A stretch of 64,000 nt of DNA from an uncultured delta proteobacterium (GCA_963771175.1 CAVYSY010000030.1:96001-160000); one strand, 5' to 3'. Shown: positions 13,336 through 23,593, counted from the stretch's first letter. Notes: a model not told the origin generated them from the letters alone. Translations and numbers: made by a program.

Positions 13336-16300
13336 GTGAAACTGCTCGAGCAGGTGACGCTGCTCTTCCAGGAGGGGAAGAGCGACAAGGTGTACGAGGT
13401 GGACCTCCTGGAGGTCTCCCCGGGCCAGTGCGTGGTCAACTTCCGCTACGGGCGGAGGGGCACCGCGCTCAAGGATGGCTCGAAGACGCCCGTGCCCGTG
13501 CCCCAGGCCGAGGCGAAGCGCGTCTTCGACAAGCTCGTCCAGTCCAAGCTGGACTCGGGCTACCTGCGCGGCGGCGCACCCGGTGCTCCCGCCTCGCCGC
13601 CCGCGTCCCGTGCTCCCGAGCCCCCGCCTCCGAGGGTGGAGGCTTCGGCCGGCACCTCGCCTCGCGAGCGCACCCTGCTCCAGCAGCTCCAGCAGGAAGC
13701 CACTGCCCGGCGGTGGTTCCGTCGCGCCGACGTACGTGCCCAGCCTCGCAAGCTGGAGCGTGTCATCTGGCGCGCGGGCGAGCTGCGCCTGCGCGCCGCC
13801 GAGCCCCTGTTGCTGCCCCTGCTGGAGCGGGCCCAACCCCTGCGCGCCTACAGCATCGCCGCCGCACTGGGGCGCCTGGGCTCGGAGTCCTCGGTGTCCG
13901 CGCTCGGGCGGCTCTATGGGGAGGCCTCCACGCCGGACATGGTGCGCCGCATGGCCACCGAGGCGCTGCTGCAGCTCTCCGACGAGGCCACCCGCGCCGA
14001 CTTCCGCCGGGACGTGCTGGAGAAGCTGCCTCCCGCGTTGCGCGAGCCGGCCCGGGCCGGGAACGCGGAGGCCTTTGGCCAGGCGCTCGACGCGCACCTC
14101 GCCTCCGGGAAGGCGGACGCGCTCGACGTCCTCGAGTCCCTCTATCTGGTGGACTCGGAGACGGTGCGGCCCGTGCTGCTGCGCGTGCTGCGCACGGTGC
14201 CCTTCACCGTGCAGTCGGTGCGCGTGCTGCGCCACCTCTTCAAGGCGGCCGAGTACCGGCGCGACGGCGAGGTGTTCGGCCTCATCGCCTGGCGCTACGA
14301 GAAGGAGCGCTCGCTCGGGGCCAGCCGGCCGCGCGCCTACACCCTGGATACGCGCAAGTACCTCCGGCGCCGTGTGTGGCGCACGCTGCGCCGCCTGGGT
14401 GAGTTGGAGAGTCCGGACTTCGTGAAGATGGCGGTGGGCGTGCTGCTCGCCTTCAGCGACGCGGACGCGGTGCCCGTGGGCACCTCGGGCTGGAACTCCA
14501 AGACGTACTGGGACGCCTACGCGCCCTACTGGGCCTTCAACCAGGTGCTGTACGCGGAGAGCCCGCGCTACGAGCCCATTCCCAATCCGCTCCGCTTCCG
14601 CTGCAAGGGCTCGTTCCGGCCCGGAGAGCGGGCGCCCGACATCCGCGAGGAGGCCTTCCCCAAGCTGTGGGAGCGCACCCCGGCGGGCCTCCTGCACCTG
14701 CTGGACGAGAGCCGCTGCGCCCCGGTGCACGAGTTCGCCGCCCGCGCGCTGCGCGCCTGCCCGGACTTCCTCGCCCAGCTCGACGTGGACGTGCTGGCCA
14801 TGCTGCTGGAGCGGCCCTACGAGGCCACCGCGCGGCTCGGCTTCGAGCTGGCTTCTCGGCGGCTGGATGCGAGGCGCGAGCCCCGGGCCCTGCTGCTCGC
14901 GGTGGCGCGCTCGGTGTACGCGCCCGCACGCCAGCAGGCCTTCCGGTGGATGGACGAGCTGCGCCATGTCCTCGTCGAGGACTCCGGCTTCGTCGCGGGG
15001 CTGGCCACCGCGCCGCACGCGGAGACGCGCGCCTACGCCGCCAACATGGTGCGAGGCTCCGTGCTCTCCGCGCAGACGATGCAGGCGCTCGTGGGTCGGC
15101 TGGTGGCGGCGCTGCTGCCGATGAAGTCGAAGGAGGACGGCCCCGTCGCCGCGGACGTGGCCCGCGTGGTGCTCGCCGCGCTGGGGCCCTCGTCCCGGGC
15201 GGTGGGGCTGGACGTGGTGCGCGACCTGCTCGCCCACCCGGTGCCCGAGGTGCAGGAGTTGGGCGGCGAATTGCTCCTGCGCCGCGACCTGCGCACCGAG
15301 CCCGTGCCGGACGAGCTGCTCCAATTGTTGGTGCAGGCGGAGCACGCGCCGCTCCGGGCCCTTGGTCTGCGGCTGCTCGCGCTCCTCGCCGAGTCCGAGG
15401 CCACGCTGCTCGCCCAGGAGGAGCTCCTCACGCGACTGGCCACCAGCCGCGTGCCGGACGTGCGCGCCGCGGTGCGCCCGCTGCTCGGGAGACTCGCGGC
15501 CGCGAGCCCCGCCGTGGGGGCGCGGGTGGTGGAGGCCCTGCTGGCCGCGCTGCTGCGTCGTCGTCTGCCGGAAGGTGTGCCGGCCCATGTGGCCTCGGTC
15601 CTCTCGGAGGAGCTGGCGCCCGCGCTGGCCTCGCTGCCGGCCGAGACGACGTGGCGGCTGCTCGATTCCGAAGATGCCGCCGCGCAGGGCGTGGGGGCCG
15701 CGCTGCTCGCCCGCCGTGGCGCGGAGCTGGCGGTGGACGTGCCTCGCGTGGCGAAGCTCGCCGGACATGACGTGCTGGCGGTGCGCGAGTGGGCGTGGCG
15801 CTGGCTGGAGGCCCACATTTTCGAGGTGCGCACGGAGCTGTCCACGGCGGTGGGCCTGCTGGACTCGCGCTGGGACGACGCCCGCGCCTTCGGCTTCCGC
15901 TACTTCCGCGAGCGCTTCGCTCCGGAGGACTTCTCCCTGGAGGTGCTCGTCTCCGTGGCGGACAGCGTGCGCAAGGACGTGCAGGCCTTCGGGCGGGACA
16001 TGCTCACGCGCTCGTTCCGCGAGGAGGACGGGCCCGAGCTGCTCCTGCGCCTGTCCGAGCACCCCGCGCCCGCGCGTGCAGCTCTTCGCCACCAACTACC
16101 TGGAGCGCTTCGCCAGTGGGAAGCCGGCGCTGGTGGAGCAGCTCGCGCCGTACTTCATCCGGGTGCTGAGCCAGGTGAACCGGGGCCGCGTCGCGCGGCA
16201 GCGGGTGCTGGGCTTCCTCCAGCGCGAGGGCCGGAGCACCGAGGCCAGTGGCCGCGTGGCCATGGAGGTGCTGCACCGGATGTCAGCCACCATTGCTATA

Positions 16301-16408
16301 GAGCATCGGGCCGCGGCGCTGGAGGCGATGCTCGTCATCGCCAAGGCGCAGCCGTCCATTCCCATGCCCTTCCACGTTCGCCCGGTGGAGGTCCGCCGTG
16401 CAGTTTGA
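13336..16408 (+). CDS. WGR-domain + ARM/HEAT-repeat protein (one +1 frameshift near 16070), retron type XIII-like partner
   Basis: N-terminal SDKVYEV...FRYGRRG...KLDSGY followed by long Leu/Ala-rich helical repeats. The frame switches at LSEHPAP/RVQLFATNYLE, giving about 1023 aa. Starts 1 nt after the previous stop and overlaps the next start. Confidence 0.8.
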
Positions 16409-18047
16409 ATACTCCTACAAGGGCAACACCGCGGTGCAGAACCGGGGAGACAGCACCGAGCTGTCATTCGCGCCGGACCTCAAGCGGCAGCCCACCTTCT
16501 TCTCCGGCGAGCTGCGTCAGAACGTGGCCTTCCGCGAGGCCATCTCCGCGCTCCACGACGTGGTGGTGTCGGACCTGCGCTTCAAGCCCAAGGACAAGAC
16601 GGCCTACAAGGCCTGGGCGGCGCAGCGCGACGAGACGCTGGACGTGGAGGCCGTGCTCGCCAACCGCCAGGCGGTGGCCAGCCGGATGAAGGCCCTGCGC
16701 GAGGAGCTCACCGAGCTGGAGAAGGAGAGCTCCCGGCGCATGAGCGCCTTCTACTCGGCGCGCACGCGTTACTACCAATACCTCTACGAGAAGAACCGCG
16801 ACTTCTGGTTCGTGTTCGACCCGGTCATCACCGTCCACCCGGACGAGTGCTTCTTCGAGTGCTTCAGCCAGGACGAGTCGAGCTACGGCCGGCTCGGCGC
16901 CAGCTACGAGGTGTTCCAGAACGTCGGCGAGTTCGCCTGCGGCACCACCAACATCGACTACTCGTCGCCGCTCTACGACGAGTTCCAGAAGATCCGCACG
17001 TACAAGCGCACGCGCTTCGAGGTCGACCCGAGCGGCTTCACCACGCGGACGGGCACGGACGAGGCGTACAAGGAGGTGAAGATCGACCTCCCGGACTCGT
17101 GGGTGCGCGGCTTCCTGCAGGTGAACTCGGCGATGGCACTGCCGGCGGTGCGCTTCACGCTGCACCCCATGGATGTGCACAACTTCCTCTTCGTGCTCAA
17201 GCGGCACAAGGAGAAGAAGGGCCCGCGCTCCATGCGCTACAAGCTGGCGCCGGGGCAGCCGGTGAAGGTGGTGTTCGAGCCCTGGGGCACGGAGGTGGTC
17301 TGCCCGCGCTCGGTGTACGAGGGCGAGGGTACGCACGACATCCGCGTGTGGGGCCGCCGGCGCCTGGGTGTGCTGGAGCGGCTCATCCCGGTGGCGAAGC
17401 GCTTCACCGTGCACCTGCTGGGCTCGGGGCTGCCGTCCTTCTACGTGGCGGACCTGGGCGACCTGTCCTTCACCCTGGGCCTGTCCGGTTGGACGGCCAA
17501 TGACTGGTCCACCGCGGGCAACTTCGACCTGATGGCGCCGCGCGGGCAGGTGGACGAGTTCACCCGCCGCCGCGTCTTCGACGCGCTCAAGGAGACGTGG
17601 TCCGCGAGGCCCGAGGCGCTGGCCTCGAAGCTGGGGCTGGACCGGGGCGCGGTGCTCGGCGCGCTCTCGGCCTGGACGCAGGCGGGGCGGGCCATCTGGG
17701 ATTTGAACAAGGGCGTGTACCGGGCGCGCGAGCTGAGCCGCGAGCCGCTGCCCATGGACAGGCTGCGCTTCGCCAACGAGCGAGAGGAGCGCGCCACGCG
17801 CTTCCTGGATGCGGGGGCGGTGAGTGTGTCGGCGCGGCCCTCCAGCACGGATGGCTCGCTGGAGCTGAGCGGCTCGGTGAAGGAGGGCGGGAAGGTGCTC
17901 CGTCCCACTTTGCGACTCGACGGGGACCAGCGTATGGTTTTCGGCGAGTGCACGTGCAACTTCTTCCAGCAGAACAAGTTGTTCCGGGGGCCGTGCGAGC
18001 ACCTGCTCGCGCTGCGGCTCCAGCACTCACGGGTGTCTCGCACATGA
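16398..18047 (+). CDS. Winged-helix + SWIM zinc-finger protein, retron type XIII-like partner
   Basis: C-terminal CTCNFFQQNKLFRGPCEH fits CxC-xn-CxH (SWIM). wHTH-like PEALASKLGLDRGAVLGALSAWTQAGRAIWD. N-terminal coiled coil. Confidence 0.85.
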   Translation: MQFEYSYKGNTAVQNRGDSTELSFAPDLKRQPTFFSGELRQNVAFREAISALHDVVVSDLRFKPKDKTAYKAWAAQRDETLDVEAVLANRQAVASRMKALREELTELEKESSRRMSAFYSARTRYYQYLYEKNRDFWFVFDPVITVHPDECFFECFSQDESSYGRLGASYEVFQNVGEFACGTTNIDYSSPLYDEFQKIRTYKRTRFEVDPSGFTTRTGTDEAYKEVKIDLPDSWVRGFLQVNSAMALPAVRFTLHPMDVHNFLFVLKRHKEKKGPRSMRYKLAPGQPVKVVFEPWGTEVVCPRSVYEGEGTHDIRVWGRRRLGVLERLIPVAKRFTVHLLGSGLPSFYVADLGDLSFTLGLSGWTANDWSTAGNFDLMAPRGQVDEFTRRRVFDALKETWSARPEALASKLGLDRGAVLGALSAWTQAGRAIWDLNKGVYRARELSREPLPMDRLRFANEREERATRFLDAGAVSVSARPSSTDGSLELSGSVKEGGKVLRPTLRLDGDQRMVFGECTCNFFQQNKLFRGPCEHLLALRLQHSRVSRT

Positions 18048-18315
18048 GAAGGGGGAGGGTTCGCGCACGCGGCGGTCAGGGGGCAGTACCTTGCAATCCG
18101 GACGGTGTTTCGCCGTCCATGCCTCATGGCCTGTCATGCATCACTGGCCCGCTCTTCACTGTGCGGAGCCTCCCTCCCTGTCGCGGCAGCGATGTCGACC
18201 TCGTCGGTCCTGCGCGCGACAGGGAGGGGGCTCCGCTGGAGTTGAGACGGTCCAGTCCCGAGAGCAGTACGAAGGTGCTCTCTGACCGCCGCGTGGACGG
18301 ACTCTCCCCCTCTCA
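18045..18315 (+). ncRNA. Retron msr-msd non-coding RNA
   Basis: a1/a2 inverted repeats: perfect core CACGCGGCGGTCAG (18066-18079) / CTGACCGCCGCGTG (18282-18295), extending imperfectly to 18045-18092 / 18272-18315. msr hairpin 18100-18118. Long msd hairpin with arms 18163-18185 / 18215-18236. Sits directly upstream of the RT. Confidence 0.85.
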
Positions 18316-18325
18316 CTGACCCGCC

Positions 18326-19918
18326 ATGTCCTCCCAGCCTCCCCGCAGCAGACAGGAGCTGTACGACCGCATCCGCGCCGGCTCCAAGGACGAGGTCGTC
18401 CTCGAGGAGATGGTGCGCCTGGGCTTCTGGCCCGCGCGCAGCGGCATTCCCGGGGACCCGGCGGACGTCATCCACCGCCGCAACGAGCTGCAGGGGCAGA
18501 TTCGCGCGCTCGCCACCGAGCAGAGCCGGCTCGGCAACCTGGAGGCGATGAAGCGCGAGCTGCTCAAGCGGCGGCTGGAGGAGAGCCGGCGCAAGCAGCA
18601 GGAGACGAAGGAGCGGCGCGAGCGCGAGCGGCAGCAGCGCGCCGAGGCCTGGAAGGAGCGCAAGGCGAAGGAGGTGCTCTTCCTGGGCCGTGGCGTGTCC
18701 GGCGGCCTGAGCGAGCGCACTGCGGACGAGGTGAGGCTGGCGCGCCTGGGTTTGCCGGTGCTGGCCACCCCCGAGGCGCTGGCGCAGGCGCTGGGGCTGA
18801 GCGTGGGGCAGCTCCGAGCCCTGTGCTTCACGCGCACCGCGTCCACCACCAGCCATTACGTGCGCTTCCTGCTGCCCAAGAAGACGGGCGGCACCCGGCT
18901 CATCTCCGCGCCCCTGCCGAGGCTGAAGGCAGCGCAGGCGTGGGTGCTGGAGAACCTGCTGAAGAAGGTGCCTGTCCACGAGGCGGCGCACGGCTTCCGT
19001 GAGGGGCGCTCCATCGTCACCAACGCCCTGCCGCACGTGGGCGCGGGCATGGTGGTGAACCTGGATCTGAAGGACTTCTTCCCCTCGGTGCTGTACCCGC
19101 GGGTGAAGGGCGTCTTCGCCAAGCTGGGCTACAGCGAGGCCACCGCCACGGTGCTGGCGCTGCTGTGCACCGAGCCGGACGTGGAAGAGGTGGAGCTGGA
19201 CGGGCAGCGCTGGTTCGTCACCCAGGGCAAGCGGCGACTGCCCCAGGGCGCGCCCACATCTCCCGCGCTGACGAACATCCTCTGCCGGCGGTTGGACCGG
19301 AGGCTCGCGGGCGCGGCGCGCAAGCTGGGCTTCGTCTACACGCGCTACGCGGATGACCTCACGTTCTCCGCCCACGGGCCGGGGCCGCATGACGCGGGCG
19401 AATTGCTGCGGCTCGTGCGCTGGGTGGTGGGGCAGGAGGACTTCACCCCGCACCCCGACAAGACGCGCGTCCTGCGCCGGGGTCGGCAGCAGGAGGTGAC
19501 GGGCGTCGTCGTCAACGACAAGCCCGGCGTGGACCGCAAGACGCTCAAGCGCTTCCGCGCCCTGCTGCACCAGCTCGAGAAGACCGGGCCCGAGGGCAAG
19601 CGGTGGGGCCACAGCGGGGACGTCATCGCCTCGGCGGTGGGCTTCGCCAACTACGTGGCCATGGTGGACCCCGGGAAGGGCAAGGCGCTGCAGGCGAAGG
19701 CTCGCGCGCTGGAGTCCCGCTACGGGCGCCGCCCCGTCGCACCGCCTCGCGCGAAGAAGGTGGCCGCGCAGGCCGGGAGCACCGTGGCCGCGCCCTCGGC
19801 GGTTCCCTCCGCGGTCCCGGCCCAGGCTCCCGAGGCCCCGGTGGCGCCCGTGAGCAGCCCGAAGACCGAGGAGACACCCGCCGAGGCTCCGAAGAAGAAG
19901 TGGTGGAAGCTGTTCTGA
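18326..19918 (+). CDS. Retron-type reverse transcriptase (myxobacterial Mx162-like clade)
   Basis: PKKTGGTRLISAP, AHGF, region X NALPH, DLKDFFPS, LPQGAPTSP, YTRYADD, region Y VTG. Confidence 0.95.
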   Translation: MSSQPPRSRQELYDRIRAGSKDEVVLEEMVRLGFWPARSGIPGDPADVIHRRNELQGQIRALATEQSRLGNLEAMKRELLKRRLEESRRKQQETKERRERERQQRAEAWKERKAKEVLFLGRGVSGGLSERTADEVRLARLGLPVLATPEALAQALGLSVGQLRALCFTRTASTTSHYVRFLLPKKTGGTRLISAPLPRLKAAQAWVLENLLKKVPVHEAAHGFREGRSIVTNALPHVGAGMVVNLDLKDFFPSVLYPRVKGVFAKLGYSEATATVLALLCTEPDVEEVELDGQRWFVTQGKRRLPQGAPTSPALTNILCRRLDRRLAGAARKLGFVYTRYADDLTFSAHGPGPHDAGELLRLVRWVVGQEDFTPHPDKTRVLRRGRQQEVTGVVVNDKPGVDRKTLKRFRALLHQLEKTGPEGKRWGHSGDVIASAVGFANYVAMVDPGKGKALQAKARALESRYGRRPVAPPRAKKVAAQAGSTVAAPSAVPSAVPAQAPEAPVAPVSSPKTEETPAEAPKKKWWKLF

Positions 19919-20203: not shown

Positions 20204-21157
20204 TGGGTGGAAGGTTTCCTGAGCAGGCGCCGAGCGGAGAGCCCGCCCGCGTTTTGCTAGAGAGTACCCTCATGGCAGGGCAGGACTGAAGGGGGAGCCA
20301 CCATGACCCGAGAGCAGAGCAACGAGGTGACGTTCACCTCGATTCATTTTGAGAACTTCAAGGCGCTGGCCTCGTACCGCGTCCCCCTGCAGCGGATGAA
20401 TGTGCTTGTCGGAGCCAACAACTCGGGCAAGTCCACGGTCATCGCCGCGTTCCGGGTACTCGCTGCGGGCTTGCGTGCAGCCCGAGCGCGCTCACCTACT
20501 CCTTTCGACGGTCCGGGTGGACAGACACGTTGGGGCTGGTCCATCCCAGTTGATGAGCTGCCGATCTCCGTTGAGAACGTCCACAGCGACTACAACGATC
20601 GTCCATCTACCGTCACCTTTCATCTGTCGAACAAGAACAGGCTTCTGCTGTGGTTCCCCACGGAGCGTGGCTGCTTCCTGTTCCATGAGAGCGAGGGGAC
20701 CGCGATTCGGACTCCGAGCGCCTTCAAGAAAGCCTTCCCCGTTACCGTGGGCGTCGTTCCGGTCCTTGGTCCCGTGGAGCATGAGGAGCGGCTGGTCGAG
20801 TCAGGGACGGTGACTCGCGGACTCGCGACTCATCGAGCGTCCCGTCACTTCCGCAGCTTCTGGCGCCACTTCCCCGAGCAGTTCGAGGAGTTCGCTGCAT
20901 GGGTCCGGGAGACTTGGCCGGGCATGGAGATCAACCCGCCGGAAGAGGTGGTGATACAGGACGGCGCGCGCCTCTTCACGAACCTCTCCATGTTCTGCCG
21001 AGAGGAGCGCATTGATCGGGAGCTGTATTGGGTGGGGTTTGGATTCCAGATCTGGTGCCAGTTGCTCACCCATATCGTCCGCAACCGAGCATCCACCCTG
21101 CTCGTTCTCGACGAGCCGGAGACCTATCTCCACCCTGACGTGCAGCGAAAGCTCCTA

Positions 21158-22363
21158 GTGGACTGTCCGCGAAGTAATTCGACATAGTCAGGAGTGATGC
21201 CTGTCCACCCAATCGTGCATTTTGGGACGGGTCCAGGACCAAGTGAATGGGTGGGCGTAGAGGCGGTTGTACTCGGGCCAGCTCGCTTCGAGGTGGGCGA
21301 TGAGCTCGGAGCGGCTGGTCCAACTCCCTCGCTGGAGGTAGCGCTCTCCGAAGGCGCGCAGCAGTAGTTCGGCCTGGTTGAGCCAGGAGGAATGGGCCGG
21401 GGTGAAGAGCACCCGGACCTGGGGGTAGCCGTGCCGCAGGAAGTCATGCGTCTCCTGGGCAATGTGGCTGGAGCCATTGTCCCAGATGAGATGGATGCGT
21501 CGCGCCTCCCGGTGCTCTCCAAGCAGATGGGGCAGCACGGCCCGCAGACAGGCCCCGTCGTTGCGCTCCAGGTGCCAGCCTCGCATCCGTCCGGTGGGCA
21601 CCACCAGCTTCGCCAGGAAGTTCACAGTGCCATGTCGGATGTACTCGAACTCCTGTCTCTCGATGAGACCCGGCTCCATCGGGTGCGTAGGGCGACTGCG
21701 CTCCAGCACCTGGAGGTTGGGGAGCTCGTCCAGGCACAGCACCACCTCGCCCCTCTCGGCCAGGGACTGCGCGCGCTCGTAGCACCAGAGAACCTTCGCC
21801 GCCTTGTGGCGGAAGGTGTCGTCGGGGATGGGAGTCCTCCAGTAGCGGGAGCGGTGGGGTTGCAACGCAGCGTCCCGAAGGATGAGCGCCACGGTCGAGT
21901 GGGAGAGGGTCGGCGCGATGCCCTGAAGTCGAGCCGCCAGGGCCAGGCTGCGAGTGGACCAGTGGGTCATGTGCAGGCCAATGCCCGCTGGCTCACAGCA
22001 GGCCAGCCGCTCCACCTCGACGCGCTGGAGGGGGGGAAAGCCGCCGCGGGCGGCCTGGGCGAGGCGCATCATCGACGACCTCTACGCCCCGTTGCTCGAA
22101 GCGGCGGCACAGGGCCCAGATGGTCGTACGGTCCAGCTCGAGCCGGTCAGCCAGCTCCGAAACGATGGTGTCCGGCTCGTTCATCGCCAGCAGAATGCGT
22201 GCCCTGCGCGCGATGCGCTGCTCGATACGTCCGTCTCGTACCAGAGCCTCAAGGTAGGTGACCTCTGCTGGTGAGAGGTGGACAAGTCGCGGGGGGCGTC
22301 TCCTCATCCCACAGAGCTATGCATTCCCTGCGACTATGTCGAATTACTTCGCGGACAGTCCAC
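21158..22363 (-). mobile_element. IS630-family insertion sequence, 1206 bp, TA target duplication
   Basis: Perfect 32-bp terminal inverted repeats GTGGACTGTCCGCGAAGTAATTCGACATAGTC (21158-21189 / 22332-22363), flanked by TA at 21156-21157 and 22364-22365. Confidence 0.93.
21188..22307 (-). CDS. IS630 transposase in two frames (HTH 22307-~22035, DDE ~22035-21188)
   Basis: RARILL...DDAPRPGRPR (HTH part). LCLDE, IWDNGSSH, FTPAHSSWLNQAE (DDE part). Frames join at CTTTCCCCCCC. Confidence 0.9.
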
Positions 22364-23593
22364 TAGGGCTCCTTCGCCACGCAGGGCCCGACATCATGTT
22401 GGCGACGCACTCGTCGGAGATCATCGCTGAAGCCGAGCCCAACGAGCTACTCCTGATCAACAAGCGTTTCAAGTCCGCGCACCGTGTCTCGGATGCGGAT
22501 GGCGTGCAGAAGGTGCTGGATGCGGTGGGGTCGATCCAGAACCCCACGCTGACCCACCTCGCCAGGACGCGACGTGTGCTGTTCGTCGAGGGAGAGGACT
22601 TCCGGATTCTCCGACGTTTCGCGCGGCGCCTCGGGCTCGACGAACTCTCTAACGGTAATGATTTGACCGTGGTTCCTATTGGCGGCTTCGCGAATTGGGA
22701 GAGGGTCGTGGGGGTTGGATGGGGTATCGGGCGAACACTGGGCCGGCCGCTCGCGCTCAGCATCGTGCTGGATCGGGACTACCGGGCTGATGCCGAGATC
22801 GAGGAAGTACGGGCGAAGTTGGCCGCCCATCTTCAGTTCGTACATCTGCACCGACGTAAGGAGGTTGAGAACTATCTGCTCGTCATTGGGCCTCTGACGC
22901 GGGCAGCATCCGCTGCCATCCGGGAGCGCTCACGGCGTACCGGAGTGACGGTGTCGGAAGTGCCGGATCTCCAGGCACTTCTCATGGAGGTCGCCGACTC
23001 GTTCCAAGGCGAGGTACTCAGCCAGTACCTATCTCGTCGGCAGTCGGCCGAGCAGCGTGGGGGCATCGACGCCGCCACGGCGATCAACCGTGTGCTTTCC
23101 GAGTTCCACGCACGCTGGTCGACGTTGGATGGTCGGATGGAGTTGGTGCCGGGGAAGCGCTGCCTTGCCGCCTTGAATAAGCGTTTGCAGGAACTGCACA
23201 AGATACAGGTGACGGCGACCGCCATCATTGACTCGTTCCACCTCGACGAGGTGCCGGCAGAGGTGCGCGACCTGCTCGCCGGGCTCGACGTCTTCCGACA
23301 GAGTGCCGTGCCATCGGGAGAGGACGTGGCGCAGACTGGATGACTCTTACCTTCCTGGCCGACCTGGAGCGCGATCGGCGGTTCTCCGCCATCCGCTAGG
23401 TGTTCGGCGACTACGTGAAGTTGCCCTCCGAGAGCTGCCCCTCCAGGCGCTCGCGGGCGACAAGGCAGGGCTCAAGTGGCTCCGCCCGCTCGGGCTTCAC
23501 TCCGATGACACCAGCAGGGGCCACACGAAGTGCTTGACACCCTGGCAGAGACACCCGTTGGCTGAAACTCCGTTGGCTGCTCAGGAGGTATGC

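Follow-up and report, generated by a model that had tools for sequence, protein, structure and literature searches.

A probable Ne144-like type XIII retron RNA gene beside its reverse transcriptase in an Archangium-like myxobacterium

In a stretch of 64,000 nucleotides (nt) from an uncultured delta proteobacterium (GCA_963771175.1, CAVYSY010000030.1:96001-160000), the whole of which we call the window and in which positions are counted from its first letter, the + strand carries at 18046-18314 what is very probably the gene for the msr-msd non-coding RNA of a type XIII retron, an RNA of the Ne144-like class. An initial annotation of this DNA had read an msr-msd architecture here, and that reading holds: the flanking genes are those of type XIII retrons, and a conserved, covarying RNA occupies the homologous spacers. 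The element has the layout of a retron RNA, in which paired ends (a1 and a2) enclose a short msr hairpin and one long msd hairpin. Its parts, in which MFE denotes the minimum free energy fold and msDNA the multicopy single-stranded DNA, are as follows:

18046-18084, + strand: a1 arm, the 5' inverted repeat; pairs with 18277-18314 in the MFE fold and in close relatives
18085-18087, + strand: bulge AGU, unpaired in the MFE fold, holding G18086; its alignment columns are variable
18089-18092, + strand: innermost a1/a2 helix, CCUU; pairs with AAGG at 18272-18275 (RNAalifold columns 112-115 with 319-322)
18093, + strand: predicted priming (branching) guanosine, the G in the context UUGCAA, directly 3' of the closing helix
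18100-18118, + strand: msr stem-loop GGACGGUG-UUU-CGCCGUCC, 8 base pairs (bp) and a UUU loop
18119-18142, + strand: linker from the msr hairpin to the msd stem; holds an invariant G18128, and the predicted msDNA 3' end lies near 18126/7
18126-18271, + strand: msd, predicted template; boundaries inferred by homology with Nannocystis exedens locus L206
18143-18256, + strand: msd hairpin, with base helix 18143-18154/18244-18256, main stem 18163-18185/18215-18236 and tip 18186-18214
18272-18314, + strand: a2 arm, the 3' inverted repeat; same basis as a1

The initial annotation had suggested RNA folding and covariation in homologous intergenic regions as checks, and both favor the retron reading. 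The RNA folds at -186.2 kcal/mol, compared to -126.9 +/- 5.6 kcal/mol in 200 dinucleotide shuffles, none of which was as stable (z = -10.59). The complementary strand folds at -168.1 kcal/mol, 18 kcal/mol worse, and the arms contain four G-U pairs (18082/18279, 18080/18281, 18061/18300 and 18058/18303), in keeping with the earlier proposal that G-U-compatible differences between the arms point to pairing at the RNA level. In the MFE fold, 18043-18084 and 18088-18092 pair with 18272-18318 around a core, noted before and readable directly in the sequence, in which 18066-18079 and 18282-18295 form 14 Watson-Crick pairs out of 14; the duplex of the two arms amounts to -76.7 kcal/mol. The inner helix has a fifth pair in the window, A18088-U18276. 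The msr stem-loop and the msd hairpin lie exactly where they had been drawn, the latter with a main stem of 22 pairs and one bulged U (18171), continued inward by GCAG/CUGC and CGAC/GUCG and outward to 18143/18256.

Support from comparison came from a reverse transcriptase (RT) search with one genome per species, which yielded 477 coding relatives among 599 candidate stretches, of which the best 80 were kept. Among these 80 loci, the nearest RT relatives belong to Archangium species (84-90% identity), and the remainder are spread over Myxococcota, Bacteroidota, Acidobacteriota, Cyanobacteria, Planctomycetota and Proteobacteria. Searching with the window's RNA core (18088-18276) using nhmmer, we found a homologous RNA upstream of the RT in 74 of the 80 loci, across many phyla; six loci (L024, L034, L039, L040, L041 and L075) gave no match to this core, two of them holding less than 100 nt of upstream sequence. 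In six other loci (L027, L028, L030, L031, L036 and L046) a single RT gene is preceded by two tandem RNA genes spaced about 260-330 nt apart. After two incomplete matches (L012 and L068) were dropped, 79 RNAs were aligned.

The RNAalifold consensus of these 79 RNAs comprises 44 pairs, 34 of which show compensatory double changes. Under this structure 91.7% of cells are paired; shuffles give 73.4 +/- 0.5%, none of 500 reaching the observed value, and sliding the partners along the alignment lowers the figure to 34.5-45.5%. Changes on both sides of a pair were counted in 654 cells versus 208 in shuffles. The msr hairpin is paired in 99.2% of cells, with both-side changes in five of its eight pairs; the base helix of the msd hairpin in 98.0%; and the CCUU/AAGG inner helix in 94.3%. 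In the main msd stem, which is variable in sequence, both-side changes occur in all 18 consensus pairs. Two further helices were considered and rejected. A second msr hairpin within 18119-18142 would keep only G18121-C18139 and C/U18122-G18138, with no compensatory change and no RNAalifold helix. An MFE helix joining 18132-18142 to 18262-18271 is unsupported because it is invariant in the 17 close relatives and absent from the 79-row consensus.

Across phyla the arms are not alignable by sequence, and they were therefore tested by pairing each with its own or with a foreign partner, taking the 46 nt 5' of the G and the 46 nt 3' of the template start and excluding foreign arms more than 60% alike. 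The duplex averaged -50.0 kcal/mol with the own partner and -24.7 kcal/mol over 5808 foreign pairings, and the own partner was the best one in 61 of the 79 RNAs, even as the arms differ freely between lineages. Finer resolution came from an alignment of 17 rows within the Archangium clade (the window and 16 close relatives). Here, of 39 arm pairs, 19 are invariant, nine change on one side and still pair, six change on both sides, and five depart only by unpaired cells, while the outermost pairs, at 18043-18045, form in only 6-7 of the 17 rows. From this behavior we take the supported arms to be 18046-18084/18277-18314 plus the inner helix. The initial annotation had paired 18045-18092 with 18272-18315; in the MFE fold the AGU bulge at 18085-18087 stays unpaired. 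The annotation had also described the RNA as overlapping the SWIM stop codon, as it does, since the stem starts at 18046, and as ending 10 nt before the RT start codon; the supported end is 18314, 11 nt before.

Two guanosines, G18086 and G18093, had been put forward as the branching residue, and comparison singles out the second as the likely primer. G18093 is preferred because its column is G in all 79 RNAs, because it stands next to the closing helix and because it aligns with the G of TAGC in Nannocystis. It lies directly after that helix, opposite a nearly invariant CG at 18270-18271, so that the family shows the conserved guanosine that retrons have at the inner end of a1 or immediately beyond it. 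The usual context of the priming G is TAGC at the 3' end of a1, with Mx162, Sa163, Mx65, Ec67 and Vc81 as exceptions, as given in the portion of Simon et al. 2019 (PMC6868368) available to us; Ne144 is absent from the exceptions named there and by exclusion should have TAGC. Priming from G18086 instead, with the DNA start shifted accordingly and the retron RNA otherwise the same, is very unlikely. This residue is unpaired within the stem in the MFE fold, and it stands in the context CAGU, similar to the CAGC given for Mx162 and Sa163 in the same portion of that paper. Its column, however, is not conserved, with G in 41 of the 79 RNAs, and four of the 79 have no G at all within 7 nt 5' of CCUU. 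Moreover, a helix of 4-5 bp separates it from the template start, whereas known retrons, as described there (PMC6868368), have the G at the stem's inner end or immediately beyond it, and the competing G18093 is the invariant one.

With priming at G18093, the msDNA should be the reverse complement of about 18126/7-18270/1, or some 145 nt, an estimate obtained by homology with N. exedens. The distance from the priming G to the CG or first template base is 177-178 nt at L206 and 178-179 nt in the window, and the two RNAs are 66% identical. If L206 is Ne144, a 144-nt DNA ends 34 nt after the priming G, which corresponds to 18127 here, or to 18126 if copying starts at the C; for Ec86, a figure legend in the available part of PMC6868368 places the start of reverse transcription at the cytosine just 5' of a2. 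The initial annotation's interval of roughly 18125-18270 agrees with these limits to within 1-2 nt. As DNA, the predicted msd folds at -47.0 kcal/mol (z = -5.98). Alternatively, copying could stop at the foot of the msd stem, at 18143, giving a DNA of about 129 nt. Within the otherwise variable linker, G18128 is invariant in 79 of 79 RNAs and lies one base from the predicted msDNA 3' end; it may be part of the stop signal.

The RNA is an ordinary new member of an already described class, the Ne144-like RNAs of type XIII. According to the accessible part of Mestre et al. 2020 (PMC7736814), type XIII combines a clade 10 RT with a SWIM/DEDE protein, which in most cases follows a WGR / HEAT-ARM protein, and includes Mx162, Mx65, Sa163 and Ne144, with RNA structures of its own. 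Three RNA classes of the type (A_firmi, B_Ne144 and C_Mx162/Mx65) are tabulated in the portion of PMC13712802 at hand, which also gives type XIII the broadest phylogenetic distribution among the groups it surveys. The window's RNA falls in B_Ne144: the RNA of Nannocystis bainbridge (L054) aligns within the set of 79, and that of Retron-Nex2 (Ne144), which we take to be locus L206 of N. exedens DSM 71, is alignable and has the same single msr hairpin. Common to both are the msd base (CACUGG...CUCUU / GAGUUGAG...CCAGUCC) and the CG before a2, and the RTs are 61% identical over 455 amino acids (aa). They differ in priming context, TAGC in Nannocystis versus UUGC in the window and in 77 of the 79 family members, and in the top of the hairpin, which is unrelated in sequence; the window's arms are also longer, at about 39 + 5 bp and -76.7 kcal/mol compared with a family median of -47 kcal/mol.

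Retron-Mxa1 (Mx162) and Retron-Sau1 (Sa163), of class C_Mx162/Mx65, are likewise type XIII, have SWIM and WGR/HEAT partners and encode an RT whose N-terminal extension is long (PMC7736814 and PMC6868368, parts available), and they share with the window long a1/a2 arms, a long DNA hairpin and a myxobacterial host. Their priming context, in contrast, is CAGC (available part of PMC6868368), and their DNA measures 162-163 nt against about 145 nt predicted here. The window's own genome holds two further RT_XIII loci, C54:159708-161054 (- strand; L220, E = 4e-160) and C58:20920-21864 (- strand; L221, E = 1e-113). Upstream of L220 lies an Mx162-like RNA that has long arms and contains CAGC motifs; its sequence is unrelated to the window's RNA and cannot be aligned with it, and the RT cores are 49% identical. 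A fourth, weak RT_XIII match, on contig C11, holds a TGA. A search of this genome for retrotransposed copies of the RNA, of the kind reported for N. exedens, matched only the locus itself and its own inverted hairpin. The RT search returned no Myxococcus among its 80 best loci, nor did a search with the pattern CCTTGCAA among the 80 loci listed. Since the window's RNA could not be mapped onto Mx162, Nannocystis was taken as the experimental anchor. Retron-Eco1 (Ec86, type II-A) resembles the window in its a1/a2 stem, its priming G at the inner end and its hairpin msDNA, and we assume a shared mechanism; it differs in RT clade and effectors, in its 86-nt DNA and in having no sequence similarity. 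The arms of Ec86 are short, about 12 bp.

Beside the priming G, the window has a feature that the rest of the family mostly lacks. The heptamer GCAGUAC at 18083-18089, which includes the AGU bulge and lies just 5' of the priming region, recurs at 18264-18270 as the first templated bases, and this direct repeat extends to 11 nt with two G/A differences. Other lineages have different words at the same two places (GACAUCUU, GAAGCCU, CAAGGCUCU, GGGUUCCG and others), and most lineages are without the repeat. A shared run of at least 7 nt was seen in 10 of 46 lineage representatives, compared with 2.8% of foreign pairings, and in a larger set in 12 of 66 lineages, compared with 3.4% of foreign pairings, with none of 2000 re-pairings reaching 12. 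Several of these cases share the family consensus GAGCCUU, which reduces the number of independent events to perhaps eight or nine words. Because of the repeat, roughly the first 11 nt of the msDNA would be able to pair with the RNA lying just 5' of the branch, and the AGU bulge, for which a2 offers no partner, would be among the bases covered. It is conceivable, though we consider it doubtful, that once the template is removed the 5' end of the msDNA displaces a2 and forms a second RNA-DNA duplex, with a loop of 3-4 nt at the 2'-5' branch; if true, such a branch lock lies outside the textbook picture of msDNA. The repeat may instead let the RNA fold into a different local hairpin in which the start site is hidden, or it may be a by-product of arm evolution.

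The genes of the retron lie on the same strand as the RNA, with WGR/HEAT and then SWIM directly upstream of the RT, the set that a PADLOC profile search assigns to type XIII:

13336-16689, + strand: WGR / HEAT-ARM accessory gene; PADLOC WGR_XIII E = 1.2e-301 over residues 1-912, plus HEAT-ARM_XIII models (coordinates are those of the longest open reading frame (ORF), start and end unrefined)
16398-18047, + strand: SWIM zinc-finger accessory gene of Mestre's cluster 114 type; PADLOC SWIM_XIII E = 3.2e-235
18326-19918, + strand: retron reverse transcriptase, 530 aa; PADLOC RT_XIII E = 7.2e-189, Pfam RVT_1 E = 1.6e-21

The RT translation carries the motifs NALPH (NAXXH), YADD (the YXDD box) and VTG, as do RTs of the retron clade. 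The SWIM gene also matches Pfam SWIM (PF04434; E = 2.4e-4; 21.0 bits, the cut-off being 19.6), and its stop codon, TGA at 18045-18047, falls within the first pairs of a1. Taken as longest ORFs, the two accessory genes overlap by 292 nt (16398-16689) in different frames, the WGR model match stopping at residue 912 of 1117. An open frame of 240 codons on the + strand, 17597-18319, spans the entire RNA gene and ends in a TGA (18317-18319) 6 nt before the ATG of the RT; in G+C-rich DNA it is probably due to chance. Downstream, an AAA_15/AAA_21 ATPase ORF (20303-21187, matching NsnB, AriA, Old and GajA) ends exactly at an IS630-family transposase gene on the opposite strand (21188-22072), and the next ORF (22258-23343) weakly matches the later part of GajA. 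Together, 20303-23343 looks like a defense ATPase gene split by an insertion sequence.

Parts of the stretch also occur in sequencing runs, 20 of those listed, of which six are RNA libraries; four RNA libraries, from soils and biocrusts, were compared with it. In one of them (X15) a 208-nt contig is identical to 18083-18290, without differences; in another (X16) a 2974-nt contig of a relative spans all of 17901-18500; and in a third (X18) contigs of 126 nt cover 18127-18252. The start of the latter at 18127 was considered as a possible DNA end and rejected, as 18126 is a polymorphic site in these runs and a polymorphism suffices to interrupt a contig. The uncovered parts beside the 208-nt contig are uninformative, and contig depth cannot rank the parts of the RNA.

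Several points weigh against the assignment and against details of it. Contigs from RNA libraries may include DNA, and they do not define transcription, molecule ends or levels; the msDNA, its branch and the ends of the RNA are placed here from sequence. The scan of 17400-18500 revealed neither a sigma-70-type promoter nor an intrinsic terminator, and for this reason the RNA may be cut from an operon transcript. No Rfam family matches: the seven hits at E <= 10 are all sub-threshold and come from microRNA, snoRNA or similar models, the best, a microRNA-hairpin look-alike, reaching 27.8 bits where the gathering score is 100. The part of PMC6868368 available to us gives TAGC, CAGA, CAGC, GAGC and ACGC as priming contexts, but not UUGC. 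Four of the 79 RNAs have a weak a1/a2 duplex within the 46-nt flanks. Finally, the identity of L206 with the published Ne144, which we infer from the organism name and the 144-nt arithmetic, is a weak link, and N. exedens has two strong RT_XIII matches, L206 and L224. At the second of these loci, L224, the SWIM gene abuts the RT with no RNA spacer, and the RT match holds one in-frame TGA.

In the mechanism that we propose, the RNA would probably share a transcript with the WGR/HEAT and SWIM genes upstream or arise by read-through from them, and its long a1/a2 stem would bring G18093 to a helix end that faces the CG at 18270-18271. The RT encoded at 18326-19918 would prime from the 2'-OH of this residue and copy from 18270/1 leftwards through the msd hairpin, stopping near 18126/7. 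The product would be a branched RNA-DNA molecule whose single-stranded DNA, of about 145 nt, folds into a long hairpin. By analogy with other retron types, the complex of RT and msDNA would restrain its partners, SWIM and WGR/HEAT, for as long as no phage disturbs it; in the literature searched, we found no demonstrated function for type XIII retrons.

One could object that this copy is a relic, with an inherited structure that no longer yields msDNA, given that the locus is known here from sequence alone and that the nearby ATPase gene, cut by the IS630 element, tells of a region that has suffered insertions. We regard this as improbable, and somewhat more so than priming from G18086: the RT frame is open and lacks no catalytic or retron motif, each accessory gene matches its model from end to end, the window's copy keeps every conserved position of the RNA family, and close relatives preserve the pairs through compensatory changes. 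Least credible of all is a structured element of the spacer with no part in reverse transcription, be it an attenuator, a stem processed by RNase III or a cruciform in the DNA. In its favor, the long perfect stem would suit RNase III as a substrate, and no Rfam retron family matches. Against it, 74 of the 80 loci, from different phyla, have the RNA together with a retron RT, and the layout is that of a complete retron RNA, from the arms and the invariant G to the msr hairpin and the long variable hairpin. The interval 17400-18500 has no U-tract terminator, and strand-specific pairing with G-U pairs argues against a cruciform at the DNA level.

Type XIII is the oldest known retron type, beginning with Mx162 in 1984. 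For an Archangium-like myxobacterium, the present analysis provides a base-level annotation of such a retron RNA, with its arms, priming G, template and predicted DNA, and resolves by comparison the ambiguity over which guanosine primes. The RNA itself adds no new principle, and the repeat beside the priming G is its one unexplained extra, specific to the lineage. With its three type XIII copies, of which one is Ne144-like and another Mx162-like, this genome would be a convenient place to ask whether they act independently.

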